Assembly: GCA_963765675.1 (NCBI GenBank)
Contig: CAVXXK010000001.1
Span: 27,485 to 91,484 of the forward strand
From: an uncultured delta proteobacterium
GTDB lineage: Bacteria; Desulfobacterota; Binatia; Binatales; Binataceae
DNA: 64,000 nt
Reading direction: 5' to 3'
The notes under the pieces were generated by a model that worked only from the letters and a program-made list of their open reading frames with translations, searched no databases and had not been told where the DNA came from. Made by a program: the position numbers and the translations under genes. Every line of letters begins with the position of its first letter. Within the stretch, counting starts at the first letter, position 1. This document shows, one piece after another, positions 4,429 through 62,836 of the stretch.

Positions 4429-4587
4429 CTGATTGCGGCTTGAGTTTTCACAAGATGTAAACGCCGGCAAGCCGCAGTCTAACTGCTTCAATTCTGACCC
4501 CTCATAGTGGTGGTTATCAAGCGCTGTGGGGTGCAATCGCACCGGAAGGTCGGCTAATCTTCCACAGGAGGGGATGCGTCAAGGACG

Positions 4588-6198
4588 ATGGCGAAAGCGC
4601 GAAAGACAGCCAAGCCGCGGAAGATTTTCGTTCCGGTGGTTCCACAAGGCGCGACTTGGATCGAAAGCGACAGCTACGACCGCCGCGCCTGGAGCGAGAT
4701 TCTGTCCGGCACTCCTGCGTTCAAGGACCTGACCGAGGCGGGCGGCGCGCTGGTCCCGCACTTCGACGCGCTGCTCGCGGATTTTTTCCTCGCGCTGTTC
4801 AAGTTCAACCTCGTATGGCACAAGCCCGGCGCCGTGCGCCGCGCGGCTGCCCTCAACCGCACAATCCTGGATGAAATTTTGCCTTCGCCCGCTTTCGAGG
4901 CGCTGAAAAACCGCACTCTGCTCGAAGAAGACAAGGCCGCGATCGCGGCGATTGTGCTCGGCGAGCGGGCGCTCGAAATGATTCGCAGCGAACGCTTCCT
5001 GAATCGGCGCGAGATGGTCGATCTGTGGGATCTCGAGCATCAGGAACAGGACCTCGCCGCGCGCGCCGACGCGCTCAAGACGATCCAGGAGATGACCGAG
5101 AAGCCCGAAGAGGAAGGCGCCGGCGGCAATCCCAAGGCGAGCGACGACGCAAAAAAGAAGATGGCTGCGATGCTCGAAACGGCGGCGCGCGCCGCGCAGG
5201 TCTCCGAGGCGCGGCTCAATCAGAAATCACGGCAGGTCGAGAGCGATCTCAAGAATAGCGATCACACCGAACTGCGCCGGATGCAGCTCAAAGCCGGAGA
5301 ACTCGCCGCCGAGATCGATCGCGCCGCCGAGGACAGCCACGATTTCAGCCGCGAGTTCGGGCAAGGCGGACGGATGAACGCTGGCGAGCGGCTCGAGCTG
5401 GGACGCCATCTGGCGAAAAGCCGCAAGCTCGGCGAGCTGGCGCGGATGGTCGGCCGCATGAAACAGGACGCGCGCGCGATTCGCCACAAGACGCTCGAGC
5501 GCGGCGTCGCCGAAGCCTACGATATCGAGCGCGGCGCCGACCTCGGCAGGATGATCCCGTCGGAGCTGGTCGCGATGCATCATCCAATTCTCGCGATCGA
5601 TTTCCGTCGCCGTCTGCTCGAATCCGATCTTCTCCAATACCGGCTGCGCGACGACGAGCAGAAGGGCAAGGGCCCGATGATCGTTTGTATCGACGTCAGC
5701 TCCTCGATGCAGGGGGACAAGGAGCTGTGGGCGAAGGCGGTGGGGCTGACGCTGATGGATATCGCGCGGCGCGGGCGGCGCCTTTTTCGCGCCGTGATGT
5801 TTTCCTCGGGCGACACGAGCCTCAAGGTGCTCGATCTGAATCGCGAGCGGCGCTATCAACCCGAGCTCGCGAAGGTGATCGAGATGGCCGAATATTTTCC
5901 GGGCGGCGGCACCGATTTTCAGCAGCCGCTCGACGCTGCCGTGGCGCTGCTCGAAGAGCGCAAGCTGAAGCGCGGCGATATCGTGATAATCACCGACGGA
6001 GAATCGCAAGTCGCGCCCGAGTGGCTCGCGCATCTGAAAGAGCGCAAGGAAGCTTTGCAATTTTCGATCTTCGGCGTGCTCGTCGATGTCGGATCGTCGG
6101 AGATGTCGTCGCTGCGGCAATTCGCCGACCGGATCACGTCGGTAAAAACGCTAAGCGACTCCGCCACCCGCGACATCTTTCTGCACGTGCAATCATGA
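4588..6198 (+). CDS. von Willebrand factor A (VWA) domain protein (CoxE/ViaA-like)
   Basis: 536 aa with a C-terminal VWA fold. It carries the MIDAS motif D-V-S-S-S-M (…MIVCIDVSSSMQGDKELW…) and …IVIITDGES…. GGAGG lies 9 nt upstream of the ATG. No MoxR-type ATPase partner is present in the window. Confidence 0.75.
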   Translation: MAKARKTAKPRKIFVPVVPQGATWIESDSYDRRAWSEILSGTPAFKDLTEAGGALVPHFDALLADFFLALFKFNLVWHKPGAVRRAAALNRTILDEILPSPAFEALKNRTLLEEDKAAIAAIVLGERALEMIRSERFLNRREMVDLWDLEHQEQDLAARADALKTIQEMTEKPEEEGAGGNPKASDDAKKKMAAMLETAARAAQVSEARLNQKSRQVESDLKNSDHTELRRMQLKAGELAAEIDRAAEDSHDFSREFGQGGRMNAGERLELGRHLAKSRKLGELARMVGRMKQDARAIRHKTLERGVAEAYDIERGADLGRMIPSELVAMHHPILAIDFRRRLLESDLLQYRLRDDEQKGKGPMIVCIDVSSSMQGDKELWAKAVGLTLMDIARRGRRLFRAVMFSSGDTSLKVLDLNRERRYQPELAKVIEMAEYFPGGGTDFQQPLDAAVALLEERKLKRGDIVIITDGESQVAPEWLAHLKERKEALQFSIFGVLVDVGSSEMSSLRQFADRITSVKTLSDSATRDIFLHVQS

Positions 6199-6713: not shown

Positions 6714-6885
6714 TGATTCCTCGCCCAGTATGGGAGAGGTTAGGTGAGGGACCTTATTCAGCGCGGCGCTCGAGCGCCGCGCGATTATAAAGAAAGCTCT
6801 GAGCAAGGCCGCCCTCACCCACGCGTCACGATGCTTGCGAAAAGAATCGCAAGCATCGCGCCACGCCGCCCTCTGCCGGGGGAGC
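6714..6885 (+). repeat. Structured dispersed repeat, copy 1 of 3 (MITE/REP-like, ~175 bp)
   Basis: CTGATTCCTCGCCCAGTATGGGAGAGGTTAGGTGAGGGACCTTATTCAGCGCGGCGC…CCCTCACCCACGCGTCACGATGCTTGCGAAAAGAATCGCAAGCATCG… is nearly identical to the reverse complement of 22160-22348. Its first ~75 bp recur at 34219-34294 in reverse orientation. It contains internal palindromes (GATGCTTGCGA…TCGCAAGCATC; GCGCGGCGC…GCGCCGCGC). Confidence 0.85.
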
Positions 6886-8754: not shown

Positions 8755-9483
8755 CTAATTGCCGCCGGGAGGCTCGTCGGGCGGCTGGTCCGAGGTACCC
8801 GGACTGTCAGGCGAGCTTTCGTCGGGTGTGACTTCTTCCGGGACGATTACCGGCTCGGTGAAATCGGCCGCCAGGTTGCAGCACATCACGTAACTCGAAC
8901 CCGCGCGCGGCTGAGCGGCGTAGGCCTCGAGCGATCCATCGGCAAGGACCTTTACCGCCTGGTAGCTGGTCGAACCCGACGCGCGTTCGATCGTGAAGAC
9001 ATAGAATGAGCCGCGGTCGAGTGGTTCCGGCGGCCCTTCGTCCGGAATCATCTGCTGGTAGTGCGAGGGGAGTTTTCCGTACTCGAGGTTCTTCGGCGCG
9101 TAGTCTGCCTTTCCGAATGCAGAAATCTCCTCGGTGATGCCGCGGTCAGATTTTATATCCCAGATGGGCACACCGCCGTCGAAGCGGACCACCGAGGCGA
9201 CCTTGCCGCCGCTTCCCGCCGCGTTCGCGATAATCTCGGCGCCGAAGAATTTCGTCACCGTCGCGCGCACAAGCGTGTCGCCGCTCTTGTGATAGGTGAT
9301 TTCGACGGTGGCCTTCGGCGGCGGCATCGGCTCGCCCGGTCCGGCGTCGGCGGTGTCGTCGGTGTCGTCGTTGTTGGTTGTCGAGCAGCCCGCGACCATG
9401 AGCGCAACCATCAGAATGGCGGCGATCGCGCTGGCCCATAGGCGCCGTCGTGCACTGGCGCGCAGTTCATTATGCATCAGCAT
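8755..9483 (-). CDS. Putative lipoprotein of unknown function
   Basis: N-terminus MLMHNELRASARRRLWASAIAAILMVALMVAGCSTT has a positively charged n-region, an h-region and a lipobox (L-M-V-A-G-C). No recognisable domain. Confidence 0.5.
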   Translation of the reverse strand: MLMHNELRASARRRLWASAIAAILMVALMVAGCSTTNNDDTDDTADAGPGEPMPPPKATVEITYHKSGDTLVRATVTKFFGAEIIANAAGSGGKVASVVRFDGGVPIWDIKSDRGITEEISAFGKADYAPKNLEYGKLPSHYQQMIPDEGPPEPLDRGSFYVFTIERASGSTSYQAVKVLADGSLEAYAAQPRAGSSYVMCCNLAADFTEPVIVPEEVTPDESSPDSPGTSDQPPDEPPGGN

Positions 9484-9509
9484 ACCGATCGGCTAGTCTC
9501 TGCGGCCGG

Positions 9510-10886
9510 GTGGACATCGGGGATAAAAGCGAAAAGATCGGGCTCCGGCCTCTTCTAATCTACGCACAGGGACAGACCGGCCTCAACCTGTGCGCGACGC
9601 TTTCCGCGATGCATCTGCTGTATTTCTACAGCGATCGGCGCGGATTGTCGCCGGCGCTGGCCGGACTCGCATTTTTTATCGCGCTGGTGCTCGACGCTCT
9701 GACCGACCCGCTGGTCGGCAATATTTCGGACAGTGCGCGCTTCAAGTCGGGACGCCGGCGGCCGTTTTTTCTGACCGCGATCCCGATGGGTATCTGCTAC
9801 TACCTGCTGCTCTCGCCGCCGGCGTTGAACAAGGGACTGTTCGCGTGGTTCCTGGTTTTCTACTTCCTGCAACTGACCTCGCGGAAGTTTTACGAGACCG
9901 CGTACGGCGCGCTGATGCCCGAGTTGACGCTCGACTACGACGAGCGCACCCGCCTTTCTACCTATCGGCAACTGTTCGGTACGGCGGGCGATATCAGCGG
10001 AGCGCTGCTGCCGTTCGCCGCCGCCTGGATTTTCGCGAAGGGACTCGATTTCCAGATCACCGGCGGCGTCTGCGCGGTGATCGTCGCGGGCGGTGCTCTG
10101 TTCGCCTACGTCAATCTGCGCGAGCGACCGGGCTTCGCCGACCGCGAACGCTTCAACCTGCGCGAGTCGATGAAGAGCGCGCTCGCGAACCGCCCGTTTA
10201 TCATCCTGATGCTCGCGACCACGCTCGCGATCATGGCGATCAATATCCCGACCGTCCTGATCCGCTTCCTGGCGAAGTATTGGGTGCATGACGAAAACGC
10301 GGCCGCACGGTGGCTTATCGCGTACTTCGCGGGCTCGATGGTTTCGTATCCGTTCTGGTTTCGGATCACGGTGCGGTTCGAGAAAAAGCCCGCGTACGTC
10401 GTCGCGATGCTCGCCAATGCGAGTTGCTCGCTGATGTTCATGCTGCTCACTCCGCGCAACACGCTGTGGATGCTGGTGCTGATGGTGCTCAGCGGATTTT
10501 CCGCGATCGGAATCTGGGTGACGCAGATGTCCGCCGCCGCCGACGTGATCGAATGGGACGAAGAGCGGACCGGACGCCGGCAGGAAGGCGCGTACGGCGG
10601 AATCACCTCGATGGGAATAAAAATCGCGACCGCGCTCTCACTGGTCCTGGTCGGTCCGGTGATGGGATGGATCGGCTACCGGCCCGGGATGGCCGAGCTG
10701 CCGCGCGCGGCGGCCGAAAATCTGCGCACGCTGTTCGCGGTCGCGCCGGCGATAATTTATGTGCTGAGCGCGATCGTGTTTGCGCGCTATCCAATCACCC
10801 GCGCCAGCCATCGCGCGATGCGCGATCGCCTGGCCGCCCGCGGCGCTCCCGGCGAAGAAGCACCCGCCGAAAAATCGATCGCGTGA
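9510..10886 (+). CDS. MFS transporter, glycoside-pentoside-hexuronide (GPH) cation symporter family (MelB-like)
   Basis: …SEKIGLRPLLIYAQGQTGLNLCATLSAMHLLYFYSDRRGLSPALAGLAFFIALVLDALTDPLVGNISD… matches the GPH N-terminal signature, with ~12 TM segments. The track ORF starts at the ATG at 9450, but that overlaps the divergent lipoprotein start. The GTG at 9510 is proposed instead, so the start is uncertain. Confidence 0.75.
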   Translation: MDIGDKSEKIGLRPLLIYAQGQTGLNLCATLSAMHLLYFYSDRRGLSPALAGLAFFIALVLDALTDPLVGNISDSARFKSGRRRPFFLTAIPMGICYYLLLSPPALNKGLFAWFLVFYFLQLTSRKFYETAYGALMPELTLDYDERTRLSTYRQLFGTAGDISGALLPFAAAWIFAKGLDFQITGGVCAVIVAGGALFAYVNLRERPGFADRERFNLRESMKSALANRPFIILMLATTLAIMAINIPTVLIRFLAKYWVHDENAAARWLIAYFAGSMVSYPFWFRITVRFEKKPAYVVAMLANASCSLMFMLLTPRNTLWMLVLMVLSGFSAIGIWVTQMSAAADVIEWDEERTGRRQEGAYGGITSMGIKIATALSLVLVGPVMGWIGYRPGMAELPRAAAENLRTLFAVAPAIIYVLSAIVFARYPITRASHRAMRDRLAARGAPGEEAPAEKSIA

Positions 10887-10975
10887 AAGGTCTGCTTGAG
10901 CCTGTTCGCCAGCGGCGGTAAACAACGTCAATCCGCCAGCACATGAGCCCGCACAAACGCAGGCACCGCCCTACT
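10807..10975 (+). repeat. Direct repeat DR1 (3' end of the MFS gene plus ~90 bp downstream), left boundary of the Rhs island
   Basis: CCATCGCGCGATGCGCGATCGCCTGGCCGC…GGCGAAGAAGCACCCGCCGAAAAATCGATCGCGTGA…CGGCGGTAAACAACGTCAATCCG… recurs at 15153-15320 at ~85% identity. That second copy includes a remnant encoding …GHRAMRDRLAARGAPGEEASAEKSIA*. Confidence 0.85.
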
Positions 10976-10989
10976 GCGCCAACGGCAAC

Positions 10990-12549
10990 GTGACCACCTA
11001 CACTTACGATCCGATGGATCGCCGCGCATCAAGGACCGATGCGCTGGGCGCCGTGGAGAGCTACGCCTACGACGGAATGAGTAACCTTACCAGCCACACG
11101 GATCGCAATGGGAACGTAACCAGCTACAGCTACGACGGGCTGAACCGCAGGACGTTTGCGGGTTTTGGATACAACGGCAGCGGGTATCAGAGCACGATTA
11201 ACTATACGTGGGACGGGGGCGACCGCCTGACGCAGGTGGTGGATTCAATTGCGGGAACCATCTCGCGGACTTACGACGGGCTCGACGACCTGACCGACGA
11301 GCAGACGCCGACGGGCGAGGTCAGCTACGCGTATGACAACGCGAGGAGGCGGACGTCGATGACGGTGGTGGGGCAGCCTGCGGCGGCCTCCTACGCGTGG
11401 GACAACGCCAACCGATTGACCGGAATTACCCAGGGGAGCGCGTCGGTTGCGTTCAATTATGACAGCGCGAGCCGAAGGACTACGCTGACGCTGCCCAACG
11501 GGATCGAGGTGGGGTATAGTTACGACAACAACTCGCGGATAAGCGGGATGACCTGGACGTTGGCCGGCAACCAGATCGGAGACCTCGAGTACGATTACGA
11601 TGCGGATGGGCGCGTGGTCGAGAAGACGGGGAGCCTCGCGCAGACCAACCTGCCGCAGCCGGTGACCGGAAATACCTTCAATGCCGATAACGAGATGACG
11701 GCGTTCAACGGCACTCCGATGACTTACGACGCAAACGGCAACCTGCTCAACGATGGGAGCAACGCCTACGCTTGGGATGCGCGCAATCATCTGAGCGCGA
11801 TCAGCGGTGCGAATGCAGCCAGTTTCGTCTATGACCCGTTGGGGCGGCGGATCAGCAAGACTATCGGGAGTACGACGACGAGCTTCCTGTACGATGGGCT
11901 CAACCCAGTACAGGAACTTCAATCGGGCGCGCCGAGCGCGAACATGCTGACGGGGCTCGGGATCGACGAATACTTCCAGCGCAGCGATGCCTCGGGTGCG
12001 AGCAGCTACCTGACAGATGCGCTGGGCAGCACGCTGGCGCTCGCAAACCCGGCGGGCGGCTTAGCGACCAGCTATACGTATGATCCGTTTGGGACCACTG
12101 CGGTGTCGGGTTCGGGTACAAATCCCTTCCAGTTCACCGGCCGAGAAAATGACCTCAACGGTCTTTATTATTTGCGTGCCCGTTACTACAACCCAGCGTT
12201 GCAGCGATTCCTGAGTCAGGATCCCATAGGAGTCCGAGGCGGGATGAATCTTTATGGCTATGTCGGAAATAACCCTGTAAACTCTTTCGATTTGTTGGGA
12301 TTGGGCGGTACACCCTCGACGACGCCCACGCCGACCAGTTGTCCAACGCCGATTCCCGTGGATCCAACCCAGGCACCAACAACATGCCAAAAGCACCTAG
12401 CCTGTGAAATAGGATGGGAGGGCACATGTGACCAGTGCAACGAATTCGAGAATCCCCAGCCGGTATTTGTTTGTCACGTTGGCTGTGTCATTACAGGGGC
12501 GGTAGTATGCGAGATTGAGTTTCCCTGCAGCCTCCGGGGTAATGACTGA
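10990..12549 (+). CDS. Rhs/YD-repeat protein fragment (5'-truncated): YD repeats, RHS core end (…DPxGL) and an ~80-aa Pro/Thr-linker plus Cys-rich C-terminal tip
   Basis: Repeated YDxxGR/NxxSYxYD motifs and the core signature …GLYYLRARYYNPALQRFLSQDPIGVRGGMNLYGYVGNNPVNSFDLLGL. The C-terminal tip reads GGTPSTTPTPTSCPTPIPVDPTQAPTTCQKHLACEIGWEGTCDQCNEFENPQPVFVCHVGCVITGAVVCEIEFPCSLRGND. The reading frame opens at 10900 inside DR1 and has no N-terminal Rhs region. The first in-frame start is the GTG at 10990. Confidence 0.85.
   Translation: MTTYTYDPMDRRASRTDALGAVESYAYDGMSNLTSHTDRNGNVTSYSYDGLNRRTFAGFGYNGSGYQSTINYTWDGGDRLTQVVDSIAGTISRTYDGLDDLTDEQTPTGEVSYAYDNARRRTSMTVVGQPAAASYAWDNANRLTGITQGSASVAFNYDSASRRTTLTLPNGIEVGYSYDNNSRISGMTWTLAGNQIGDLEYDYDADGRVVEKTGSLAQTNLPQPVTGNTFNADNEMTAFNGTPMTYDANGNLLNDGSNAYAWDARNHLSAISGANAASFVYDPLGRRISKTIGSTTTSFLYDGLNPVQELQSGAPSANMLTGLGIDEYFQRSDASGASSYLTDALGSTLALANPAGGLATSYTYDPFGTTAVSGSGTNPFQFTGRENDLNGLYYLRARYYNPALQRFLSQDPIGVRGGMNLYGYVGNNPVNSFDLLGLGGTPSTTPTPTSCPTPIPVDPTQAPTTCQKHLACEIGWEGTCDQCNEFENPQPVFVCHVGCVITGAVVCEIEFPCSLRGND
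11150..12075 (+). repeat. Internal direct repeat (Rhs core-encoding segment), copy 1
   Basis: ~925 bp at ~90% identity to 13603-14525. Similarity ends at …GCGACCAGCTA (protein …LATSY). Confidence 0.8.
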
Positions 12550-12734
12550 TTGAGTATAGGCTCCTACCAGCAGACGCTATCCATGGCTATCACACGAAAG
12601 CAGTATTACTAAGAGGTGGCTTGCCGTTTCCCATAGATGGGCACGAGTGATTAGCAACTATCAAGTGCTAAGTTGTTTATGAGAATAGATCTCGTAAGTA
12701 TTAGTGGTTGTAAACGTAGCTTATAGGCATTGAA

Positions 12735-13151
12735 ATGCGGGGTGAGAAGAAATATGTCGGCAAGCATGTAGCACTTTTCATTGGTGTAGTGTACGCGATT
12801 ATCTGGTATCGAATTCCATATATAGCGGCTGGAGAAGGCTGGCTTAGTGTCTACTTGCCAGCCATTTCTCTGCTATTTGCGGTAATGCTCGTGCTCACGC
12901 TCTATTCCGATGACACGCCATGGTTGAATCTGACATACTTTTTCCCGGGCGTGATCATCGGCGTATCTATCGATACTCTAGTGTTCCACAGCAAGGCCTC
13001 GAGAATTGCGTGGCTATTCGAATCCCTAAGCCTTTGCGTGTTTCTAGCACCGATCGCTGTTTTGGCGACAGCGCTTGGTCGCTGGATTAGCAGGAGACGG
13101 AAAAGGCCTGGCAATGAAATTCCTGTTCATGATGAAAGCGAGACTCCATGA
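12735..13151 (+). CDS. Small multi-pass membrane protein in a low-GC segment; candidate Rhs immunity protein 1
   Basis: 138 aa, 3-4 hydrophobic helices. The GC content is markedly lower than the genome. It lies immediately downstream of the Rhs tip. No recognisable domain. Confidence 0.4.
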   Translation: MRGEKKYVGKHVALFIGVVYAIIWYRIPYIAAGEGWLSVYLPAISLLFAVMLVLTLYSDDTPWLNLTYFFPGVIIGVSIDTLVFHSKASRIAWLFESLSLCVFLAPIAVLATALGRWISRRRKRPGNEIPVHDESETP

Positions 13152-13602
13152 GATCGGCGGGGGAACGGAGTGATCATCCTCCAGTGCGTTGACAAAGCAA
13201 GCGAGAAGGTTCGACCGGTGCGCGTACGCGACTGGCGATCACACTATACGTTAGAAGCCTAGGGCGGACGGTGAACGGTTACGATCTCGTCGAGATGTTC
13301 TCTGAGGTTGGTAAAGTCCTGAGTTCGCAGATCATCTATGACCGCAAGACGAATCGTTCGCGGGGATTTGGCTTTCTCTTCGCGATCCGTTTTCTCGCGG
13401 CGTTTTCTCTGGTTGCTCTCGTGAGACCCAGCGATATCATTCGAAGTTGGAGATACCGTCCAGGCGATCCGCTCTGAGAAGGAACTCGTAGCAGTCGTGG
13501 TGCGCTCGAGAAGCACCCTGGCTAGCGAAACATGTTCCGGCGAATAATGCTAGGGTTCGACGGTCTTCCAGAACGGGTTAGAAAATATTCCTTACAAACT
13601 CA

Positions 13603-14525
13603 CAGTTGCATTCGGCTACAACGGGAGCGGCTATCAGAGCACGATCGGCTACACCTGGGACGGGGGTGACCGTCTGACGCAGGTGGTCGATTCAATTGCG
13701 GGAACGATCGCGCGGACCTATGACGGGCTCGACGACCTGACCGACGAGCAGACGCCGCCGGGCGAGGTCAGCTACGGGTATGACAACGCGAGGCGGCGGA
13801 CGTCGATGACTGTTGTGGGGCAACCTGCGGCGGCATCATACGCGTGGGACAACGCGAACCGGCTGACCGGAATTACCCAAGGGAGCGCTTCGGTTGCGTT
13901 CAATTATGACAGCGCGAGCCGAAGGACAACGCTGACGCTGCCCAACGGAATTGTGGTGGCGTATAGTTATGATAAAGATTCGCGGGTAAGCGCGATGACC
14001 TGGACGTTGGCTGGCAACCAGATTGGAGACCTCGAGTACGATTACGATCCGGACGGACGCGTGATCGAGAAGACGGGGAGCATGGCGGCGACCAATCTGC
14101 CGCAGCCGGTGACTGGAAACGCCTTCAATGCGGACAACGAGATGACGGCGTTCAACGGTACCGCGTTGAGCTACGATCCGAACGGCAACCTGCTCAACGA
14201 TGGGAGCAACACCTACGCCTGGGACACGCGCAATCATCTGAGCGCGATCACGGGCGCAAATACCGCGAGCTTCGTCTATGACCCGTTCGGGCGGCGGATG
14301 AGCAAGACGATTGGAGGAGCGGCGACGAGTTTCCTCTACGACGGCCTAAATCCCGTGCAAGAGCTTCAAGCTGGAACGCCGAGTGCAAACATGTTTACGG
14401 GACTGGGGATCGACGAATACTTTCAGCGTACCGACGCCTCGGGTGCGAGCAGTTATCTCACAGATGCGCTCGGCAGCACACTCGCATTGGCAAACTCGGC
14501 AGGCAGCCTCGCGACCAGCTACAAC
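13603..14525 (+). repeat. Internal direct repeat (Rhs core-encoding segment), copy 2
   Basis: See 11150-12075. Confidence 0.8.
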
Positions 14526-14672
14526 AAGGCCTTGGTTAGCTGTCTTGAAGGTTTGCGTGACGATCCGCACAACTGGCCTTTCCCGCCGGATCCAAGTGAC
14601 GATCCGGGAGACATTGGCGCACATGAGTATAGAGAAGGCGCAATCTATATATTCCAGCATGGGGTGTGGTGA
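13683..14672 (+). CDS. Second Rhs/YD-repeat fragment (truncated at both ends; no RHS core end; short divergent tail)
   Basis: The frame opens at ~13549 with no start until the ATG at 13683. Its protein is ~90% identical to residues ~60-360 of fragment 1 up to …LATSY. It then diverges into NKALVSCLEGLRDDPHNWPFPPDPSDDPGDIGAHEYREGAIYIFQHGVW*. This is probably a recombinational remnant (pseudogene-like). Confidence 0.7.
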   Translation: MVDSIAGTIARTYDGLDDLTDEQTPPGEVSYGYDNARRRTSMTVVGQPAAASYAWDNANRLTGITQGSASVAFNYDSASRRTTLTLPNGIVVAYSYDKDSRVSAMTWTLAGNQIGDLEYDYDPDGRVIEKTGSMAATNLPQPVTGNAFNADNEMTAFNGTALSYDPNGNLLNDGSNTYAWDTRNHLSAITGANTASFVYDPFGRRMSKTIGGAATSFLYDGLNPVQELQAGTPSANMFTGLGIDEYFQRTDASGASSYLTDALGSTLALANSAGSLATSYNKALVSCLEGLRDDPHNWPFPPDPSDDPGDIGAHEYREGAIYIFQHGVW

Positions 14673-14704
14673 TCTATCAATCGAACGGAAGGAGGGGGCT
14701 GACT

Positions 14705-15028
14705 GTGGGGGCCGCTGACGATAAGCAAATGTTAGTATTTAATGCGTTTCTAGCGGCGTTGGCGGCGCTATTGCCCTTTTGGTTTTATCATATTGGGTTA
14801 GAGTATTCGTTCCTCCAGAAGCTGCCCTACATGTTCAGAGGCTTGGCGTGGGATCCAATCGCCTTGAACGTTCTGCTATCAATTCCTTTCGTATTTCTAG
14901 CAATTCGCGCTCTCAGGTTGGCCGGCTCATTTCGGAGGAGCGTTCGTCTGCTAATTATAGCAGCTCGGGTTTGTGTGTTTCATTTACATTTTGCGAACAT
15001 TGTTCCTGTTGATAGTCTGGTCAATTAA
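14705..15028 (+). CDS. Small membrane protein, low GC; candidate immunity protein 2
   Basis: GGAGGG at 14690-14695, then GTG at 14705 (or ATG at 14729). …MLVFNAFLAALAALLPFWFYHIGLEYSFLQKLPYMFRGLAWDPIALNVLLSIPFVFLAIRALRLAG… is a hydrophobic AT-rich ORF immediately after Rhs fragment 2. Confidence 0.35.
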   Translation: MGAADDKQMLVFNAFLAALAALLPFWFYHIGLEYSFLQKLPYMFRGLAWDPIALNVLLSIPFVFLAIRALRLAGSFRRSVRLLIIAARVCVFHLHFANIVPVDSLVN

Positions 15029-15152
15029 TGGCTTCGCGCCCTAACGGCTGCATCGAAGTCGCGCCCGCAATATAAACACGCCGCCTCGAATGCGTGGTTG
15101 AGCGCGAGACCGAGCGTCCCGCTCACGATGCTGGCAGCGGAATAGGGTACGG

Positions 15153-15320
15153 CCATCGCGCGATGCGCGATCGGCTGGCCGCACGAGGCGCGCCCGGCGA
15201 AGAAGCATCCGCCGAAAAATCGATCGCGTGAGAGTCGGCTTGAGACTGTTCGCGAGCGGCGGTAAACAACATCAATCCGTTGGCACGTGAGCTCGCACCA
15301 GCGAAAGCAGCGCCATACTG
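15153..15320 (+). repeat. Direct repeat DR2 (degenerate copy of the MFS 3' end), right boundary of the Rhs island
   Basis: See DR1. It lies immediately upstream of the flavoenzyme gene start at 15329. Confidence 0.85.
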
Positions 15321-15328
15321 GACCTACA

Positions 15329-16471
15329 ATGCAATTCGACTCGATAGTGGTGGGCGTCGGCGGGATGGGCAGCGCAGCCGCCTATCATTTGGCGCACCGC
15401 GGACAACGCGTGCTTGGACTTGAGCGCTTCGACATCCCTAACGCGATGGGTTCCTCCCACGGCGTCACGCGCATCTTCCGGCTGCCGTACTACGAGGACC
15501 CGGCCTATGTCCCCCTGCTGCGCCGGGCGTTTCAGCTATGGCGCGAAATCGAGACTCGCGCGGGTGAGCCTCTTCTGTTCGTGACCGGCTCGATTGATTC
15601 CAGCCTGGAGGACGACGCGCTGTTTGCAGGCGCGCTTGCCTCCGCGCGCCAGCATAAGCTCCCGCACGAGGTGCTGACCGGCGCGGAAGTGAACCAACGT
15701 TTCCCAGGCTATCGTCTGCCGCCGCGTCATCGCGCGGTGTTTCAGCGCGACGGTGGGTTTGTTGCGAGCGAGCGTGCGATCGTCGCGCATGTGTGCGCCG
15801 CACAATCCGCCGGCGCCGAGATTCATGCGCGCGAGCGCGTGCTCGGCTGGGATGCCAGTAGCGGCGGGGTGCGAGTGACTACCGACAAGGGCCGCTATGA
15901 CTGCGCGCATCTGATTCTCGCCGCGGGCGCGTGGATGAGCGAGCTTGCCAGTCCGCTCGGACGCCTTGCGATTCCCGAGCGCCAGGTTCTCGCGTGGTTC
16001 CAGCCTCTTCGGACCGAGTTGTATCAGCCCGATCGGTTTCCAGTCTTCAATCTATCGGTCGAGGAAGGGCGTTTTTACGGATTGCCGATCTTCCAGGTCC
16101 CGGGATTCAAGGTGGGCCGCTACCATCACCGCGAGGAAACCTCCCCTGCTGACGAGATCCGGCGCGAGATCGACGCGGAAGACGAACGCATCCTGCGCCA
16201 GTTCACCGAACGCTATTTCCCCGCGGCCAGCGGCTCGACGATGGCACTGCGGACCTGCATTTTTACCAACACGCCTGACGAGCACTTTGTGCTCGATCGT
16301 CATCCGCAATTTCCGCAGGTGATCATCGCGTCGCCATGCTCGGGGCACGGGTATAAGTTCTGCAGCGTCATCGGCGAGATAATCGCCGACCTCGCAACTG
16401 GTGACGGAACCACGCGGCACGAGATCGGTTTCCTGAGATTGAATCGATTTACACGGGCCGCCAAAAGTTAG
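15329..16471 (+). CDS. FAD-dependent oxidoreductase, monomeric sarcosine oxidase / N-methyltryptophan oxidase (SolA/MTOX) family
   Basis: MQFDSIVVGVGGMGSAAAYHLA… is a GxGxxG dinucleotide fold. The C-terminal …SPCSGHGYKF… matches the covalent-FAD cysteine region of MSOX/MTOX. Confidence 0.8.
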   Translation: MQFDSIVVGVGGMGSAAAYHLAHRGQRVLGLERFDIPNAMGSSHGVTRIFRLPYYEDPAYVPLLRRAFQLWREIETRAGEPLLFVTGSIDSSLEDDALFAGALASARQHKLPHEVLTGAEVNQRFPGYRLPPRHRAVFQRDGGFVASERAIVAHVCAAQSAGAEIHARERVLGWDASSGGVRVTTDKGRYDCAHLILAAGAWMSELASPLGRLAIPERQVLAWFQPLRTELYQPDRFPVFNLSVEEGRFYGLPIFQVPGFKVGRYHHREETSPADEIRREIDAEDERILRQFTERYFPAASGSTMALRTCIFTNTPDEHFVLDRHPQFPQVIIASPCSGHGYKFCSVIGEIIADLATGDGTTRHEIGFLRLNRFTRAAKS

Positions 16472-16503
16472 CGATCGGCCGCCAGGCAACACCGAGTCAC
16501 AGC

Positions 16504-18165
16504 ATGAGCGCAATCACGGTTTTTCAGGCACGCAAGATCATCACGATGGATCCGGGCCGCCCGGCCGCGGACTCTATCGCGGTCAGAGACGGCCGAATCG
16601 TGTCGGTTGGCACGCGCGACTCGATCGGACCGTGGTTGCGGCGTTATGAACACGTATTCGACGACTCTTTCGCCGACCGGATCATCGTGCCGGGTTTCAT
16701 CGATCCGCATACTCACTTGAGCCAATCAGGCGGTTACATGCTGCTCAACTACGTCGGTCCGATACCGTCTCCGGGAGCCGAAGGAATAAATCCCGCGCTC
16801 CCGACTCGCGAGGCGGTGTGCAATCGGCTGCGCGAGCTGGATTTGGAGTTGAAGGATCCGGACGAGCCGCTGTTCGCCTGGGGCTACGACGCCGCGATGC
16901 AGGGTGGTCATCTGGATCGCGGCGCGCTCGACACGATCTCGAGCGAACGTCCGGTCTCGGTGCTCTCGTACGCACCGCACTTTGTGTACACGAACAGCGC
17001 GATGCTGCGGCTATTGGGGGCGACGCCGGAACTCAAGATTCACGGCGTCGGACGAACCGATGACGGGCGACTCAATGGTGTCTTCACCGAGATCGAGGCA
17101 ATCGGATATGCACTGGCGCCATTTCACGGAAAAATTCTGCGGCCCGAGCAGGCGCGGCAGGGACTTCGGCGGCTGGCTGACGTCGCCAAAGCCGCGGGCG
17201 TCACCACCACCGCCGATATGCTGTTCGGGATGAGAAATTTCGAATCCGAGTGGCGGACTCATCAAGAGGTCGTTGGCAACGAGTCGTTTCCGCTGCGGAT
17301 GCTGCTGGTGCCGTGGGAGGCGCCGATTCGAGAAAAGTTCGCCGCAGACCCAGGCTCATTCATGTCCGACCTCGAATCACGCGCGAGTGAGAAGCTTCGC
17401 TTTCACGGGGTCAAGTTTTTCAGCGACGGATCGTATCCTTCGATGTCGCTGCGGCTGAAGTACCCGGGTTATCTCGACGGCGGCAATGGACTGCGCGCCG
17501 ACATCCCATGGGATCAGCTCGCGCAGCGGATGTTGCCGTTCTGGAAAGCGGGCGTGCAAATTCATGCTCACGCCAACGGCGACGAAGCGATCGAGGCAGT
17601 GCTCGACGCACTTGCGCGCCTGCAATCAATCCATCCGCGCTTCGACCATCGCTTCACCATCGAGCATTACTGCATCAGCTCCCCCGACCAGGCCAGACGG
17701 CTGAAAGCGCTCGGCGGCCTCGCCAGCGTCAATCCATATTTCGTCCACTATCGAAGCCAACTTCATAGCGAGCACGGATTTGGGCCCGACCGCTCCGAGG
17801 CGACCGCGCGCCTGGGCTCGCTCGAACGCGAGGGGGTTATCTTCGCGCTGCATTCCGACTTCTCGCTCGTGGTGGCGCCGATACATCCATTGACGGCCGT
17901 CTGGATCGCGGTAAATCGAATCGCCGCTGATGGAACGACGGTCCAGGCGCCGGGCGAACGTATCGGAGTGGAGCGGGCATTTCGCGCGATCACGATCGAT
18001 GCGGCCTATGTGCTGGGGCTCGAACGCGAGCTCGGGAGCCTCGAAGCCGGCAAGCTCGCTGACTTCACGATCCTTGATGATGATCCGTTCACCTGCGACG
18101 TCAAATCGATTCACGAAATAGGGATTTGGGGCACGGTCCTGGCCGGCCGCAAACAACCGGCCTGA
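16504..18165 (+). CDS. Amidohydrolase family protein (Amidohydro_3-type metal-dependent hydrolase)
   Basis: 553 aa. …IVPGFIDPHTHLSQSGG… is the HxH metal-binding motif. It has C-terminal …HSDFSL… and …AVNR… regions typical of the family. Confidence 0.8.
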   Translation: MSAITVFQARKIITMDPGRPAADSIAVRDGRIVSVGTRDSIGPWLRRYEHVFDDSFADRIIVPGFIDPHTHLSQSGGYMLLNYVGPIPSPGAEGINPALPTREAVCNRLRELDLELKDPDEPLFAWGYDAAMQGGHLDRGALDTISSERPVSVLSYAPHFVYTNSAMLRLLGATPELKIHGVGRTDDGRLNGVFTEIEAIGYALAPFHGKILRPEQARQGLRRLADVAKAAGVTTTADMLFGMRNFESEWRTHQEVVGNESFPLRMLLVPWEAPIREKFAADPGSFMSDLESRASEKLRFHGVKFFSDGSYPSMSLRLKYPGYLDGGNGLRADIPWDQLAQRMLPFWKAGVQIHAHANGDEAIEAVLDALARLQSIHPRFDHRFTIEHYCISSPDQARRLKALGGLASVNPYFVHYRSQLHSEHGFGPDRSEATARLGSLEREGVIFALHSDFSLVVAPIHPLTAVWIAVNRIAADGTTVQAPGERIGVERAFRAITIDAAYVLGLERELGSLEAGKLADFTILDDDPFTCDVKSIHEIGIWGTVLAGRKQPA

Positions 18166-18256
18166 AAATCCTGAACAAATAAGAGGCGCGCGCCCGTGAG
18201 CCACCGTATGGGATTAGATTCTTCGGGGCGAGGATCTGTTCTCCGTTCGCGCGCGC

Positions 18257-19102
18257 CTATTTGATCGGCGGCAGAAAATCCGGGAAATCTTTCGACGGCT
18301 TCATCTTCCATGCTGGCTTGCGTTTTTGCAGGAACGCAGTGACGCCCTCATGCGAGTCCGGCTGCTTGCCGACCCACCAGAAGGCGTTCGAATCGACCGC
18401 CTGCGCCTTCTCGATACTGTCCTCGGCGAGCAGGCCCCACGTGAGCCGCTTGGTCATCGCGACGGAAACCGGCGCGGTATTCTCGGCGATATCGAGCGCC
18501 ATCTCGCGCACCTTGCCCATGAACTCCGCGTCGGGCCATACGTGGCTGACGATTCCGAACTCGAGCGCCTCTTTGGCGTTGATAATCTTCCCGGTCAGCA
18601 GCAGCTCGTTGGTTTTCGCAAGCCCGATCTGCCGCGCGACGGTCCACAGGCTCAGCGCCTCCGGGATAATTCCGCGGCGCACGAAAACGAACCCAATTCG
18701 CGCGCTCTCGGCCGCGACACGAATATCCCACTGCATCGGCAGCGTGATTCCCATTCCGACCGCTGGACCGTTGATCGCCGCGATGATCGGCTTCTTCATA
18801 TTCCAGGGACGCACCGCCGGACGCCGCGGCGTCTCGCCACGTTCGGCGCGTTTATCGGCGTTGAAAGTGTCGCCGCCGCCACCCGAAAGATCGGCGCCGG
18901 CGGAAAACGCGCGGCCCGCGCCAGTCACGACGATCACGCGCACGCTGTCGTCGCCATCAAGATCGGCGAACGCCTGGTAGAGTTCGCCACCCATCGCGGC
19001 GTTGAACGCATTAAGCTTCTCCGGCCGGTTGAGCGTGATCGTTGCCACGCTCTGCTTGATGTCGACGAGAATTGCTGTCTGAGCCATCGCACTAGCCTCC
19101 AA
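18257..19102 (-). CDS. Enoyl-CoA hydratase/isomerase (crotonase) family protein
   Basis: …ATITLNRPEKLNAFN…VIVVTGAGRAFSAGADLS… is the crotonase signature. The true start may be the Met at 19087 (MAQTAIL…). Confidence 0.85.
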   Translation of the reverse strand: MEASAMAQTAILVDIKQSVATITLNRPEKLNAFNAAMGGELYQAFADLDGDDSVRVIVVTGAGRAFSAGADLSGGGGDTFNADKRAERGETPRRPAVRPWNMKKPIIAAINGPAVGMGITLPMQWDIRVAAESARIGFVFVRRGIIPEALSLWTVARQIGLAKTNELLLTGKIINAKEALEFGIVSHVWPDAEFMGKVREMALDIAENTAPVSVAMTKRLTWGLLAEDSIEKAQAVDSNAFWWVGKQPDSHEGVTAFLQKRKPAWKMKPSKDFPDFLPPIK

Positions 19103-19318
19103 TATGATCGCGCCCGCCCTGTCCCGCTTATACCGCGCATCGGCGGCGCTCGAAAAGCCGCAGCGTCCGGGATTCCTCGCGCGCCAGCCACGCGCGGGAA
19201 TGACACGCGAACTGCTTCACACGATCTCAGATCCACCGCCTCTTCGTAGGACCGCGCCGAGACGCGCCCTTCTGATGACATCCCGTTAGTACGCCACTAC
19301 AATCGCATTCGAACGGAT

Positions 19319-19828
19319 TTGCAGGATGCGGAGCACGCAACCGACGATCATCTCACCGCAAGAATCCTCGGTGCTGAAGCCAAGTTGAAAATACAAACGG
19401 CACAGGCGATCGGCTTTCTGGTTGGCGCGGTGGGGGGACTGGTGGGGTTTTCACCGGCCAGCCGAATTGGAGCGGTGCTGTGGGGATTTCCCCCCACTAG
19501 TCGCGGGGGTTGGATGGCCGTCTCGGTCGTTATTCTAAGCCTTGCGACCGCCCATGGGATCGCCGCGATCTTAGCGTTGAACCAGCGACCGGCAGATTGG
19601 CACGGCAGCTTCCGGTCTCAATGGCGCCAGCTTCGGCAGGTCACCGACAAGTGCTCGTTGGGTTTCTTCCTGGCGGTGTTGGGGTGGCTTACGTACAACA
19701 GATTCACGGGCGACATATCGACAGAAAACTTTGTTGTGTCAGGTTCAATATTCCTTCTGATCGTGCTGTTTCTAGGCGGCGGGGTGAACAGCTTTCTGCC
19801 GCATCGACGAGAGAGGGTGCGACGGTGA
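19319..19828 (+). CDS. Hypothetical membrane protein (lower-GC segment)
   Basis: 169 aa with several hydrophobic helices (…AIGFLVGAVGGLVGF…, …FLAVLGWLTYNRF…, …IFLLIVLFLGGG…). No recognisable domain. The region 19300-20080 is AT-richer than its surroundings. Confidence 0.35.
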   Translation: MQDAEHATDDHLTARILGAEAKLKIQTAQAIGFLVGAVGGLVGFSPASRIGAVLWGFPPTSRGGWMAVSVVILSLATAHGIAAILALNQRPADWHGSFRSQWRQLRQVTDKCSLGFFLAVLGWLTYNRFTGDISTENFVVSGSIFLLIVLFLGGGVNSFLPHRRERVRR

Positions 19829-20079
19829 CGCAAAACTTCCTGTCTATAGTACTTCTTTTCGCGGTCGCCGCATTTTCCGCCGTGCTCTGGTATGGCACCT
19901 ATCGGCGATGGCGAGGGCTATGCGACCCTCCTGTCAAAGCTTGGTACTTCTATTCGCACTCCGCGATCAAAAAATTCTTTGGATCGCGAGCAGTCGTTGC
20001 TTTCAACTATTTCCTGGTTTTGTGGGGTATCGGATTCTGCGTGATCATCGTGGTGTCGCTGCTCCACCCGTCGCGCTGA
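19825..20079 (+). CDS. Hypothetical small membrane protein
   Basis: GTG at 19825 overlaps the upstream stop (GTGA). …TQNFLSIVLLFAVAAFSAVLWYGTYRRW…FFGSRAVVAFNYFLVLWGIGFCVIIVVSLL… is hydrophobic. The part of the track ORF upstream of this start is Arg-rich junk. Confidence 0.3.
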   Translation: MTQNFLSIVLLFAVAAFSAVLWYGTYRRWRGLCDPPVKAWYFYSHSAIKKFFGSRAVVAFNYFLVLWGIGFCVIIVVSLLHPSR

Positions 20080-20095
20080 GCGGTTTCCCCTAAAA

Positions 20096-20578
20096 CTACT
20101 TGGTGAATTCGATTGGCTGGCCGCAGGCGTTGCCGCCGGCGTTGTAGTCGTAGACCATCCGGCCGCCATAGTCGGCGCCGCGCGCGAGTACTGCGCACAT
20201 CACCAGCAGGCCTACAAGGAATGCCCACCGAAACCGCGAGGGCATCGGGCGCGCCGCGAGCGCCCAGATTGTCAACGCGGCGGCGATCACGCCGGTTGCG
20301 ATCATCAGATGCTCATGATGCTCGAGCAGCGCGGTGCGCACCGACTCGGCGATCATCACGCCTTCGCCCGCTTCTAGGCCGGTTGCGATCGCCACGGCGC
20401 CGCCCACCGCGCCGAGTATCAGCGACCAGAACGCCGCCCACTTGAGCGACTCGCTGCCGATAGCTGCGGCAAGAAAGTACAGGAGCGCCGCACCACACAG
20501 AAACGCGATCGGAAAATGAACTACGATCGGGTGAAAGTTCTGTAGATGCGACGCTCCGGGAAAGACCCGTTCGAGCAA
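20096..20578 (-). CDS. DUF2231-like integral membrane protein
   Basis: …NFHPIVVHFPIAFLCGAALLYFLAA… is the characteristic DUF2231 N-terminal helix. It has 4 TM segments. Confidence 0.55.
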   Translation of the reverse strand: MLERVFPGASHLQNFHPIVVHFPIAFLCGAALLYFLAAAIGSESLKWAAFWSLILGAVGGAVAIATGLEAGEGVMIAESVRTALLEHHEHLMIATGVIAAALTIWALAARPMPSRFRWAFLVGLLVMCAVLARGADYGGRMVYDYNAGGNACGQPIEFTK

Positions 20579-20582
20579 ACCC

Positions 20583-20948
20583 TTACTTCACGGAATCGAC
20601 GGTCAGGAAATTCACGCCGCCCTTGCTGTATTCCTTGCCCGACACGGTGACCGTGTCTTCCATCTTGCTGATGACGTCGTCGGGCAGTGACTGCGCGTTC
20701 TTGGCCGGGAGCAGGATGTAGATCTTCTTGGTGTCCGATTCGACCAGCGAAACCGGGATTCCCGCCTTGGCGCATCCGATCGCGCACTTCTGATGGCTCG
20801 CGCCGTGCGCGCCCATCGTGCCGTAGCAGAAGCTGTCCTCGAGCGTGCCGGTTACCGACTTAGAGGTTCCGGTCTCCGCCGCCATCGCTACCGACGCGAG
20901 GCCGACTGACAGTATCAAGCCCAGACCAGCAATAAGAAATCGTTTCAT
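20583..20948 (-). CDS. Small secreted protein of unknown function (Cys-containing; possibly a metal/redox partner of the DUF2231 protein)
   Basis: MKRFLIAGLGLILSVGLASVAMAAE is a signal peptide. …CYGTMGAHGASHQKCAIGCAKAG… Its stop is 4 nt from the downstream gene start, so it is probably co-transcribed. Confidence 0.45.
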   Translation of the reverse strand: MKRFLIAGLGLILSVGLASVAMAAETGTSKSVTGTLEDSFCYGTMGAHGASHQKCAIGCAKAGIPVSLVESDTKKIYILLPAKNAQSLPDDVISKMEDTVTVSGKEYSKGGVNFLTVDSVK

Positions 20949-21098
20949 GAGAGTCCTCCCAGGTTACTTGCCCAGCTACTTGTTTGTCGCGACAACGCCC
21001 GCAAAGGCGCCTCAAACTCAAAGCGGAACTCGGATGCGGGTAACTCGTCGATTATTGCGGAAATGGGGCCTTCCCGCCAAGAGAGAAGATTGCGCTCT

Positions 21099-22025
21099 TT
21101 AACGGCGCGCCGAGGGCGCTTCGACCCGCGGATCGACTTCGCCGATCATCTCGCGCCATCGCGCGCGCTTGCCGGCACTGCGCGGACGCGCGCCGAGCTT
21201 CACCAAATGATGCTCGAGGACCTCTTTCAGATCCTCGGCCAGGCGCTCGATCTCGACTTCCTCGGGCATCTTGGGACGTGGTTGTCCCTCGGTCAGGCCT
21301 CCGCGCCGCCGTCCATAGAGCTGCTGGAGCCGCAACTCCGCCTTCGCCAGCATCGCCTTGTACTTGTAATCAAGCCGGCTCAGATCTTCGGACAGATTCG
21401 CGAGCGCCACATAGCGCCGGCGCATCCGCCACCATTCGAACAGTGTGACGATCATCACCCCGAACATCAGCACCGCCGCGACGGTGGTTGAAACCGCAGT
21501 CGCGCGCCACCACGGCATTATTCGCAGGCTCGAGGTCAGGGATTGGTTGTCTTCGCCCAGCTCCTGATTCTTTTCCTGCAGCGCGTTCAGATCGTGCTGC
21601 TCGGTTTCGGCCTTCTGCTCGGCGGTCTGCGCCTCGGCGGCAAGCGAATCGATCTGCTTTTGCATCGATTTCGCCTGCGCTTCGTACGGATTGGGCACTT
21701 TCAACTCGTCGCCGGCAATTAGTTCCTCGTCGGGACTGATCCGATTTGTATGCGCCAATTGCTCGGCCGTGAGCCCGAACATCGCCGCGACGGTTCCGAG
21801 CGTGTCGCCCGGACGAATCGTGTACGGAATGATCGCGCGCGGATGCGGCGGCGGTTTTGGCGCGGTGTCGGCCGCGGCGGCTGGTGCGGCAGGAGCGCTC
21901 GACGCCGGAATATCTTCGTCGGAGAAGCTGCCGCTCTGCGCGAACGCGGGCGCAGCTATAGCGAAGGCAAGAATCGCCGCGAGGCAGATTCGCGAGGTTT
22001 TATCGATTATCCGTAGCGCGGGCAT
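21099..22025 (-). CDS. LysM domain protein with coiled-coil and TM segment
   Basis: Signal peptide MPALRIIDKTSRICLAAILAFAIAAPAFAQ. The LysM domain reads …YTIRPGDTLGTVAAMFGLTAEQLAHTNRISPDEELIAGDELKVP…. A Gln/Glu-rich coiled coil follows, then the TM helix …AVSTTVAAVLMFGVMIVTLF…. Confidence 0.8.
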   Translation of the reverse strand: MPALRIIDKTSRICLAAILAFAIAAPAFAQSGSFSDEDIPASSAPAAPAAAADTAPKPPPHPRAIIPYTIRPGDTLGTVAAMFGLTAEQLAHTNRISPDEELIAGDELKVPNPYEAQAKSMQKQIDSLAAEAQTAEQKAETEQHDLNALQEKNQELGEDNQSLTSSLRIMPWWRATAVSTTVAAVLMFGVMIVTLFEWWRMRRRYVALANLSEDLSRLDYKYKAMLAKAELRLQQLYGRRRGGLTEGQPRPKMPEEVEIERLAEDLKEVLEHHLVKLGARPRSAGKRARWREMIGEVDPRVEAPSARR

Positions 22026-22159: not shown

Positions 22160-22348
22160 GCGCCTGCCGATACCCTCTCCCACCGGGAGAGGGCGACGCG
22201 GCGCGATGCTTGCGATTCTTTTTCGCAAGCATCGTGACGCGTGGGTGAGGGTGCTGCTCCGCTCTTCACTTTTATAATCGCGCGGCGCTGCGCGCCGCGC
22301 TGAATAAGGTCCCTCACCTAACCTCTCCCATACTGGGCGAGGAATCAG
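22160..22348 (-). repeat. Structured dispersed repeat, copy 2 of 3 (inverted relative to copy 1)
   Basis: The reverse complement matches 6714-6885 almost base for base. It contains an additional palindrome CCCTCTCCCACCGGGAGAGGG. Confidence 0.85.
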
Positions 22349-58985: not shown

Positions 58986-58988
58986 GAC

Positions 58989-62169: not shown

Positions 62170-62836
62170 CTACTCGGTCAGATAGCCGAGCTGGGAGAGC
62201 CGCACGGTGGCGGCTTCGACGGATACATCGAACGCAAGCGAAATACGCTGGCAGAGCGCTGACGCTTCAGGCGATCCCTTGGCCACCGGCGGGCGCTCAG
62301 AGCGATTCTGGAAATAAGCCTCGACCGCGCGCCGCGCGAAGCTCTCCGGCATCAGCAAGGCACCCGAGGCATAGCCCGCCTGCCATTCAAACCAGTCAAC
62401 GACCGCGCTCGGTCGGAAGCAGGCTCTGCCAGTAACAGCGGTGCGGACTGCGGGCAGCGCCGTACTTGTCGTACAGCCAAGCGTGGAGCATCACGTGGCC
62501 ATATTCGTGGGTCAGGGTCGTGCGCAACCGGTTGTTACGATGCCGTTGCTCCCACAGTTCCCGCGCGATTGTGACCCGCGGCTTTCGGCCGCGCTCGAAC
62601 TGGGTGAAACCAAAGACCTCGTGAATGTCATCGGAAAGATCCGTCGCCAAGTCGAGGTCGGCGGCGTCACGCTCGATCAGCATCGTGACCGCCTCGGTCG
62701 GCACCGGGATGCGTTCAAATCCGAAGTGCTGGCGCAGAAAGGAGGTGATCGTCTCCTCGCACATCTGCTCAAGCTCGCCGATCTCCCAGTGCGGACGCTC
62801 CGGAAAGCGCCCGGTCCTGTCCGGTATCATCTTCAC
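62170..62836 (-). pseudogene. ImmA/IrrE-family metallopeptidase (HEXXH), frame interrupted by a 1-nt insertion near 62420-62460
   Basis: …LTHEYGHVMLHAWLYDKYGAA… contains the HEXXH motif, then the frame is lost. The +1 frame continues …AVVDWFEWQAGYASGALLMPESFARRAVEAYFQ…VEAATVRLSQLGYLTE (track ORF 62170-62358). Confidence 0.7.

Follow-up and report, generated by a model that had tools for sequence, protein, structure and literature searches.

Background

The closest described counterparts of the locus analysed here are the orphan rhs-CT/rhsI modules, or silent cassettes, of Enterobacteria, such as those at the rhsC locus of Dickeya dadantii 3937 and at STM0292 of Salmonella LT2 (PMC3150448, PMC3967940); in the LT2 rhs case that was shown to recombine, the shared sequence is 522 bp long at 95% identity (PMC3967940). 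The tips of Rhs proteins are demarcated after a PxxxxDPxGL motif at the end of the core, and Rhs families diversify by C-terminal displacement (PMC3150448), the displacement of tips being credited in that paper to Jackson et al. 2009 (its reference 12). Here we analyse a 4.2-kb rhs island (about 10977-15151) within 64,000 nucleotides of DNA, referred to below as the window, from an uncultured delta proteobacterium of the family Binataceae (contig CAVXXK010000001.1, positions 27,485 to 91,484 of the forward strand). Bordered by a GPH-family transporter gene on one side and a solA-like oxidase gene on the other, the island contains a direct repeat of about 0.9 kb, which is most probably the conserved YD-shell segment of two adjacent orphan rhs toxin/immunity modules, module 2 being a deletion derivative that has lost its toxin.

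Organization of the rhs island

Both rhs fragments are 5'-truncated, start-less orphan modules that keep conserved rhs coding sequence. They share a YD-repeat segment of about 0.9 kb and carry different C-terminal ends, as the original prediction had pointed out; a membrane open reading frame (ORF) follows each of these ends, and between the fragments lies the remnant of a gene for an RNA-recognition motif (RRM) protein that it had also named. In window coordinates, the features of the island and its borders are as follows.

10807-10976, + strand: left flanking direct repeat (DR1), 170 bp, 87% identical to 15152-15320
10977-12549, + strand: orphan rhs fragment 1, without N-terminal domain or credible start (PF05593, E 1e-32; TIGR01643, E 8e-28; TIGR03696, E 6e-25); YD repeats to 12078, Rhs-associated core 12079-12303, tip 1 12304-12546
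11164-12074, + strand: repeat copy 1, the YD-shell coding segment of fragment 1 (from self-BLAST, alignment and substitution rates)
12735-13151, + strand: membrane ORF 1, 138 aa, four hydrophobic segments, G+C content at third codon positions (GC3) 0.51; candidate immunity gene of tip 1
13271-13477, + strand: RRM gene remnant (PF00076, RRM_1, E 9e-7; NF058537, E 2e-9)
13593-14523, + strand: orphan rhs fragment 2, YD repeats only (PF05593, E 4e-19; TIGR01643, E 1e-20), holding repeat copy 2 (13611-14521)
14524-14672, + strand: probable deletion junction (codons N-K), 47 aa left over from the C-terminal end of a toxin tip, and a stop (homology to L003 and P0123, introduced below)
14705-15028, + strand: membrane ORF 2, with three hydrophobic segments; candidate immunity gene for the lost toxin
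15152-15320, + strand: right flanking direct repeat (DR2), a displaced 3' end of the transporter gene with intergenic DNA, ending just before the ATG of the oxidase gene (15329)

Fragment 1, a frame of 523 codons, sets in abruptly where DR1 stops, and no in-frame start codon precedes the internal GTG at 10990. After the residues LATSY it reads TYDPFG... into the Rhs-associated core, which is found only in this fragment (TIGR03696, E 6e-25, residues 368-442 of the 523-residue translation). The core ends in PVNSFDLLGL (window 12274-12303), with Leu at the place of the usual Pro of DPxGL; the equivalent of DLLGL in relatives is DPTGF (L003), DPSGF (P0123), DPTGL (P0006) or DPWGL (P0004). Tip 1 follows DLLGL directly and consists of 81 aa, a Pro/Thr linker and a Cys-rich part. 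None of the best 120 homologues shares this tip, a word-index search with it returned no candidates, and Pfam and NCBIfam hold no match for tip 1, membrane ORF 1, membrane ORF 2 or the tip family of module 2 (the tip-2 family). For membrane ORF 1 a single homologue was found (P0122; 65% amino-acid identity, dN/dS 0.45), and the homologous locus (L085; ENA ERZ27257556 k141_943021) matches window 12657-13094, including 78 bp of shared upstream sequence. At that locus the homologue lies downstream of a GHMP-kinase gene and away from any rhs sequence, so membrane ORF 1 also occurs as a free-standing unit. The RRM remnant matches only positions 14-44 of the 70 positions of its profile.

Probable loss of the toxin from module 2

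Fragment 2 comprises 360 codons, with in-frame stops just upstream and an internal GTG at 13683 as its earliest start codon. It has no match to the Rhs core (TIGR03696), which bears out the earlier remark that it lacks the RHS core end. After LATSY it reads NKALVSCLEG... for 49 residues, to a stop at 14670-14672; relative to fragment 1, the sequences part at residue 366/367, which leaves two codons to the start of the core and about 76 to DLLGL. The tail had been described as an unrelated sequence of 45 residues, but in addition to being slightly longer it has clear relatives. It shares 74% identity (E 5e-14) with the final 47 residues of an rhs ORF (4445-5617) on L003, a 642-kb contig of a related uncultured genome, and 72% (E 7e-18) with the C-terminal end of P0123 (residues 155-204 of 204), one further clear relative from an exhaustive HMMER search of 1.84 billion representatives. 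The L003 ORF consists of YD repeats, LATSY-TYDPFG..., an intact core (...IDYIDPTGF) and a tip of ~127 residues ending in ...CNQALIICLQGLPDDPHKWPLPPDPSDDPGDYGARQYREGAIFIFKHGLW. Both L003 and P0123 have, between LATSY or its equivalent and the stretch that matches the tail, an intact core and about 85 further tip residues. Compared with L003, fragment 2 lacks 465 bp (155 codons, in frame), a stretch that takes in the entire Rhs core and roughly the first two thirds of the tip, and only two codons (N-K) and 2-3 bp of microhomology stand between the homologous blocks. Because the tail is homologous to the end of intact tips, and because the break lies upstream of the tip boundary, the tail is best regarded as the remnant of a deleted toxin and not as a displaced tip.

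The gene that follows points the same way to the L003 locus. Membrane ORF 2 probably starts at the GTG at 14705, nine bases after AGGAGG (14690-14695), a good predicted ribosome-binding site, and its product is 63% identical (E 2e-35) to that of the ORF after the intact L003 toxin (L003 5652-5990). In comparisons with L003, the ratio of nonsynonymous to synonymous divergence (dN/dS) is 0.11 for the tail and 0.09 for membrane ORF 2, and dS is 1.3-2.7 in the tail and immunity region as against ~0.55 in the YD part. The deletion appears to be recent relative to the divergence from L003, because the tail and membrane ORF 2 still show such dN/dS ratios. In the proposed history, module 2 once had the order YD-core-tip-immunity, and an in-frame loss of 465 bp by illegitimate recombination would have killed the toxin and spared the immunity gene.

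Intact relatives of the lost tip (P0123 and L003 5150-5617) carry the motifs NYGG(K/R)xWTGG and DICYAAHDxCFDSC, which are reminiscent of two features of secreted phospholipase A2 (sPLA2), its calcium loop and its His-Asp site. Against the PDB the best match of the tip-2 family is rice sPLA2, which is not significant (E ~4), and a profile search of the PDB returned none, so that a phospholipase A2-like nature of the family is a lead only. The part resembling a phospholipase A2 catalytic site is exactly the portion that is gone from module 2 of the window.

Relationship of the two YD-repeat segments

Self-BLAST detects a single long direct repeat in the window, 11164-12074 against 13611-14521 (911 bp ungapped, 86.3% nucleotide identity, E = 0), with homology that extends back to about 11148/13593 if one 3-nt indel is allowed. 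The coordinates of the original prediction were therefore essentially right; its figure of ~90% nucleotide identity describes the first 300 bp only and is too high for the repeat as a whole. Both copies are in-frame YD repeats (PF05593, TIGR01643) with 88.8% amino-acid identity over 303-304 residues, and they lie on the same strand at a spacing of 2,447 bp. They differ at 125 sites, distributed 28/9/88 over codon positions 1/2/3 and thus mostly at third positions, and the longest identical runs between them are 38, 36 and 30 bp.

That the repeat was expanded during assembly, an outcome that had been named in advance as fatal to the observation, has next to no probability. Such artefacts are a general risk in metagenome assemblies, and nothing beyond this speaks for one here; the 125 differences between the copies contradict it, as do two further assemblies. 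An ENA contig (L001; ERZ25039501 contig_50773, 4,219 bp) is 100% identical to window 10935-15153, and a Logan contig (L088; 2,301 bp) is 100% identical to window 11451-13751, bridging copy 1, tip 1, membrane ORF 1, the RRM remnant and copy 2, with its ends inside the 38- and 36-bp identical runs of the repeat. The same arrangement of the two copies is present in all three assemblies.

Nei-Gojobori estimates for copy 1 against copy 2 are dS 0.56, dN 0.059 and dN/dS 0.11, and comparisons of either copy with the rhs fragments of other genomes (L002, L003) give dS 0.54-0.66 and dN/dS 0.09-0.115. In a joint alignment, fragment 1 and fragment 2 are 85.3% identical and either is 81-85% identical to the L002 and L003 copies, so the two fragments are no closer to each other than to those of other genomes. 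The ratios indicate purifying selection in every comparison of YD fragments that was made. Given this divergence, and given that the copies are no closer to each other than to foreign ones, we infer that the two YD segments are diverged alleles now side by side, and that most of their separation took place under purifying selection within working genes. They were probably drawn from a pool of rhs modules and brought together rather than copied in place.

This bears directly on the idea of an internal duplication made in place. A recent tandem or segmental duplication of one rhs fragment, with the products now drifting apart, would account for two direct copies on one strand 2,447 bp apart, but it is hard to reconcile with the dS of 0.56, the dN/dS of 0.11 and the 28/9/88 split over codon positions, with copies as distant from each other as from those in other genomes, or with tips, immunity ORFs and 5' break points that differ between the modules; we regard it as extremely improbable. 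The repeat had also been proposed as a substrate for further deletion or duplication between its copies. Recombination of this kind is possible in principle, but the substrate is a weak one: recombination should be inefficient between copies that are 86% identical and share no identical run longer than 38 bp, and no hybrid protein occurs among the homologues found.

Origin of the break at LATSY

Three explanations of the break in fragment 2 were weighed. In the original prediction it was the footprint of canonical C-terminal displacement, in which homologous recombination in the YD region gave fragment 2 an unrelated tip. Rhs families are known to diversify in this way (PMC3150448), and the two fragments do differ in their C-terminal ends and downstream ORFs; tip displacement, however, keeps the core and swaps what follows DPxGL, whereas fragment 2 has lost the whole core, its tail corresponds to the final third of a tip found elsewhere behind an intact core, and its junction shows 2-3 bp of microhomology and no homologous crossover. 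With the break two codons before the core and about 76 codons upstream of the DPxGL-type boundary, displacement is very unlikely to have produced it. A somewhat better case can be made for an illegitimate fusion of two modules, by which the YD segment of one orphan was joined to the tip remnant and immunity gene of another, although we consider this unlikely too. It would fit the YD part of fragment 2, which is no closer to that of L003-A, the carrier of the related tip, than to other copies; it would fit the tail and immunity region, where divergence from L003 (dS 1.3-2.7) far exceeds that of the YD part (dS ~0.55); and fusion scars do occur in relatives, for example in P0002, where a core DPLG is joined to a YD repeat. 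Such a fusion nevertheless demands more events than one deletion, and the absence of a special affinity says little, since recombination is expected to homogenise YD segments. Its outcome, moreover, would be identical, a dead toxin and a kept immunity gene. In P0002, a JGI protein, the core fragment ...RFISQDPLG runs straight into the YD repeat (NTTYLFDDAAGRL...) at residues ~90-110, a junction that has the look of a scar left by recombination of a core DPxG with a DPLGN in the repeats.

We therefore favour an internal deletion in the second of two orphan modules, and several points weigh against this interpretation. A single internal deletion is indistinguishable from an illegitimate join in which one module supplied the YD part and another the 3' end, and the YD part of fragment 2 shows no special affinity to that of L003-A. 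Tip 1 is without a detectable relative or family, its toxicity being assumed, and the immunity role of membrane ORFs 1 and 2 is only a candidate one; the sole homologue of membrane ORF 1 has a kinase gene, and not an rhs gene, for its neighbour. The window contains no full-length rhs gene, so it does not have the classical layout of a main gene followed by orphans. Both reading frames are still open, which is somewhat unexpected for dead DNA, and the interpretation does not account for the flanking repeats of ~165 bp, which may stem from Campbell-type integration, from a duplicative insertion or from something else.

Flanking repeats and genomic context

The upstream neighbour of fragment 1 is the GPH transporter gene (MFS/GPH family, 9450-10886), the last 80 bp of which, together with ~85-90 bp of intergenic DNA, make up DR1; its homology to DR2 fades at about 10968. 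The two flanking repeats are 87% identical overall (~165 bp), 93.75% in the 80-bp coding part and 81% in the intergenic part. The gene after DR2 encodes a protein like N-methyl-L-tryptophan oxidase (solA-like; NF008425, E 8e-145). G+C content is 43-55% in the tips, spacers and membrane ORFs against about 60-67% in the surroundings, and GC3 is 0.51 in the membrane ORFs against 0.7-0.8 in neighbouring genes. A tblastn search of the whole 64 kb with fragment 1 finds only the two fragments. Within 10000-16000 there is no Rfam match, and counts of promoter and terminator consensus sequences are no higher than in shuffles.

A tandem duplication of the whole island was rejected as an origin, the order being DR-rhs1-...-rhs2-DR and not DR-rhs-DR-rhs. 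If the flanking repeats had begun identical and drifted neutrally to 87%, the simulated chance of the frame staying open is ~0.035 for fragment 1 and 0.10 for fragment 2. Because drift to this extent would very probably have put stops in both frames, either the island came with an already diverged copy of its target, for example by Campbell-type integration from a relative, or the frames have been maintained.

A relative ~90% identical to window 9809-21317 was found by a metagenome scan with a 23-mer from the flanking repeat (L084; JGI Ga0307374_10060336). In it, ~114 bp after the transporter gene, comes the homologue of window 18240-19158 (an enoyl-CoA hydratase gene), and the island, the oxidase gene and the amidohydrolase gene are all absent, so the locus is not a simple empty site. 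The enoyl-CoA hydratase stretch of this relative includes a short repeat that is also present at window 6817-6884 and 22163-22246. No conspecific genome emerged when genome contigs were scanned with the oxidase protein; the best of the relatives (L004, L011; 75% amino-acid identity) share only the synteny of the oxidase and amidohydrolase genes and not the transporter gene, and offer no clean empty site.

Near the right end of the window, genes for a TrwC-type relaxase (994 aa) and a TrwB-type coupling protein of a type IV secretion system (603 aa) lie at 56001-60800 (minus strand) and belong to a conjugative element. This region adjoins a pair formed by a helix-turn-helix (HTH) gene (62833-63156, minus strand) and an ImmA/IrrE-like gene (62396-62836).

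Predicted function of the island

Neither fragment is expected to make or export a toxin by itself. Module 1, structurally complete from the last third of the shell onward, could serve as a silent cassette that becomes active only after recombination with a full-length rhs gene elsewhere, which is possible in principle; activation of this kind has been shown for Salmonella LT2, where 522 bp at 95% identity sufficed (PMC3967940). Module 2 would be unable to yield a toxin, and its remaining use would lie in membrane ORF 2, the probable immunity gene. The present function of the island is thus likely to be the keeping of two candidate immunity genes, and, judged from its sequence, the island would be a decaying pair of cassettes with a retained value that is mainly immunity.

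A more speculative and rather unlikely view is that the island is a discrete, transferable orphan cassette that passes from one related genome to another by single-crossover (Campbell-type) recombination via its carried target copy of ~165 bp. Its fragments would form a silent archive of toxins and immunities without a linked main gene, and their frames would stay open through selection or through recurrent gene conversion with full-length genes as partners. Three observations hint at this. The flanking repeats are only 87% identical and yet both fragments are open (chance under neutral drift about 0.035 x 0.10); the rhs fragment of L002 starts within ~25 bp of the same point of the gene in an unrelated context; and in a second sample the island is a separate 4.2-kb contig that ends at the repeats (L001). 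The ends of that contig could reflect a bubble in the assembly graph, with the island in part of the population or with different flanks, or a plain assembly break.

For annotation, both rhs ORFs should be treated as gene fragments, the second as a probable deletion derivative from which the toxin is gone and in which a probable immunity gene is kept. Before a break in Rhs homology is called tip displacement, its position should be compared with the core and the DPxGL boundary. The locus would add one more case of polymorphic-toxin loci that decay to remnants retaining immunity, from a little-studied uncultured lineage.

Related rhs fragments in other genomes

The best named homologues of the window's rhs sequences are from Candidatus Binataceae, consistent with a host in Candidatus Binatia. 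Related genomes from the same ENA project contain long arrays of rhs fragments, each with small ORFs after it (L003, L086 and L087; ERZ25039477, ERZ25039540 and ERZ25039555). In L002, a metagenome-assembled genome of Binataceae, an rhs fragment (9606-10004) is fused directly to the 3' end of an HTH gene, the homologue of which in the window is the one paired with the ImmA/IrrE-like gene described above; the L002 rhs sequence begins within ~25 bp of the start point of fragment 1 (10977-11005).

A 30-nt element (GGAGCCTGYCCYGAGC...GCCGARGGnAC, with a GACPERSRRN-like translation) is present in L003 at 4328, 4580, 4709, 4793, 6382 and 8152 and also in P0002 and P0031. Each copy takes the place of the 6-nt TAYGAY that encodes the Tyr-Asp of a YD repeat and lengthens the frame by 24 nt. 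All copies lie within rhs fragments; the window and the other loci compared (~1.3 Mb) have none.

Comparison with known systems

The locus is of an ordinary, already known kind, and what is new is this instance. A complete Rhs protein has an N-terminal delivery/plug region and a full shell and is usually longer than 1,200 aa, which neither fragment approaches at 523 and 360 codons and without an N-terminal domain. A variable tip directly after a DPxGL-type motif is present in module 1 (81 aa) and not in module 2, which lacks the core and retains just the final 47 aa of a tip. Like the enterobacterial orphan rhs-CT/rhsI modules, the fragments have lost the 5' part of rhs and with it the signals for translation start and export, and they retain a conserved rhs stretch upstream of a variable tip. 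A small ORF comes after each fragment, and the shared stretch is a potential substrate for recombination. The window differs from those systems in having no full-length main rhs gene upstream within its 64 kb, in a homologous stretch of 86% identity over 911 bp as against 95% over 522 bp in LT2, in the loss of the core and most of the toxin from module 2, and in the placement of the pair as a small island with direct repeats of ~165 bp at its flanks between housekeeping-type genes.

With C-terminal displacement the locus shares its general long-term product, fragments with related YD regions and with unrelated tips and immunity candidates, but the break at LATSY, ~76 codons upstream of the boundary after PxxxxDPxGL, is better understood as a deletion scar. 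The arrays of L003, L086 and L087 are built from the same YD family (68-87% amino-acid identity), and in them, as in the window, the fragments decrease in length and each has small ORFs after it; they comprise 4 to more than 10 modules, whereas the island of the window has two. The L087 array, unlike the island, follows a DUF6531 N-terminal fragment, and one array, that of L003, includes module 2 in its intact form.

In other bacteria, immunity genes are retained as orphans or in islands after their toxins have gone, for example in the acquired interbacterial defence clusters of Bacteroidales. The island of the window has only two such candidate genes and no recombinase or integron-like structure, and it resembles those clusters in that module 2 keeps an apparently intact and constrained immunity candidate (dN/dS 0.09) beside a toxin that appears to have been destroyed.

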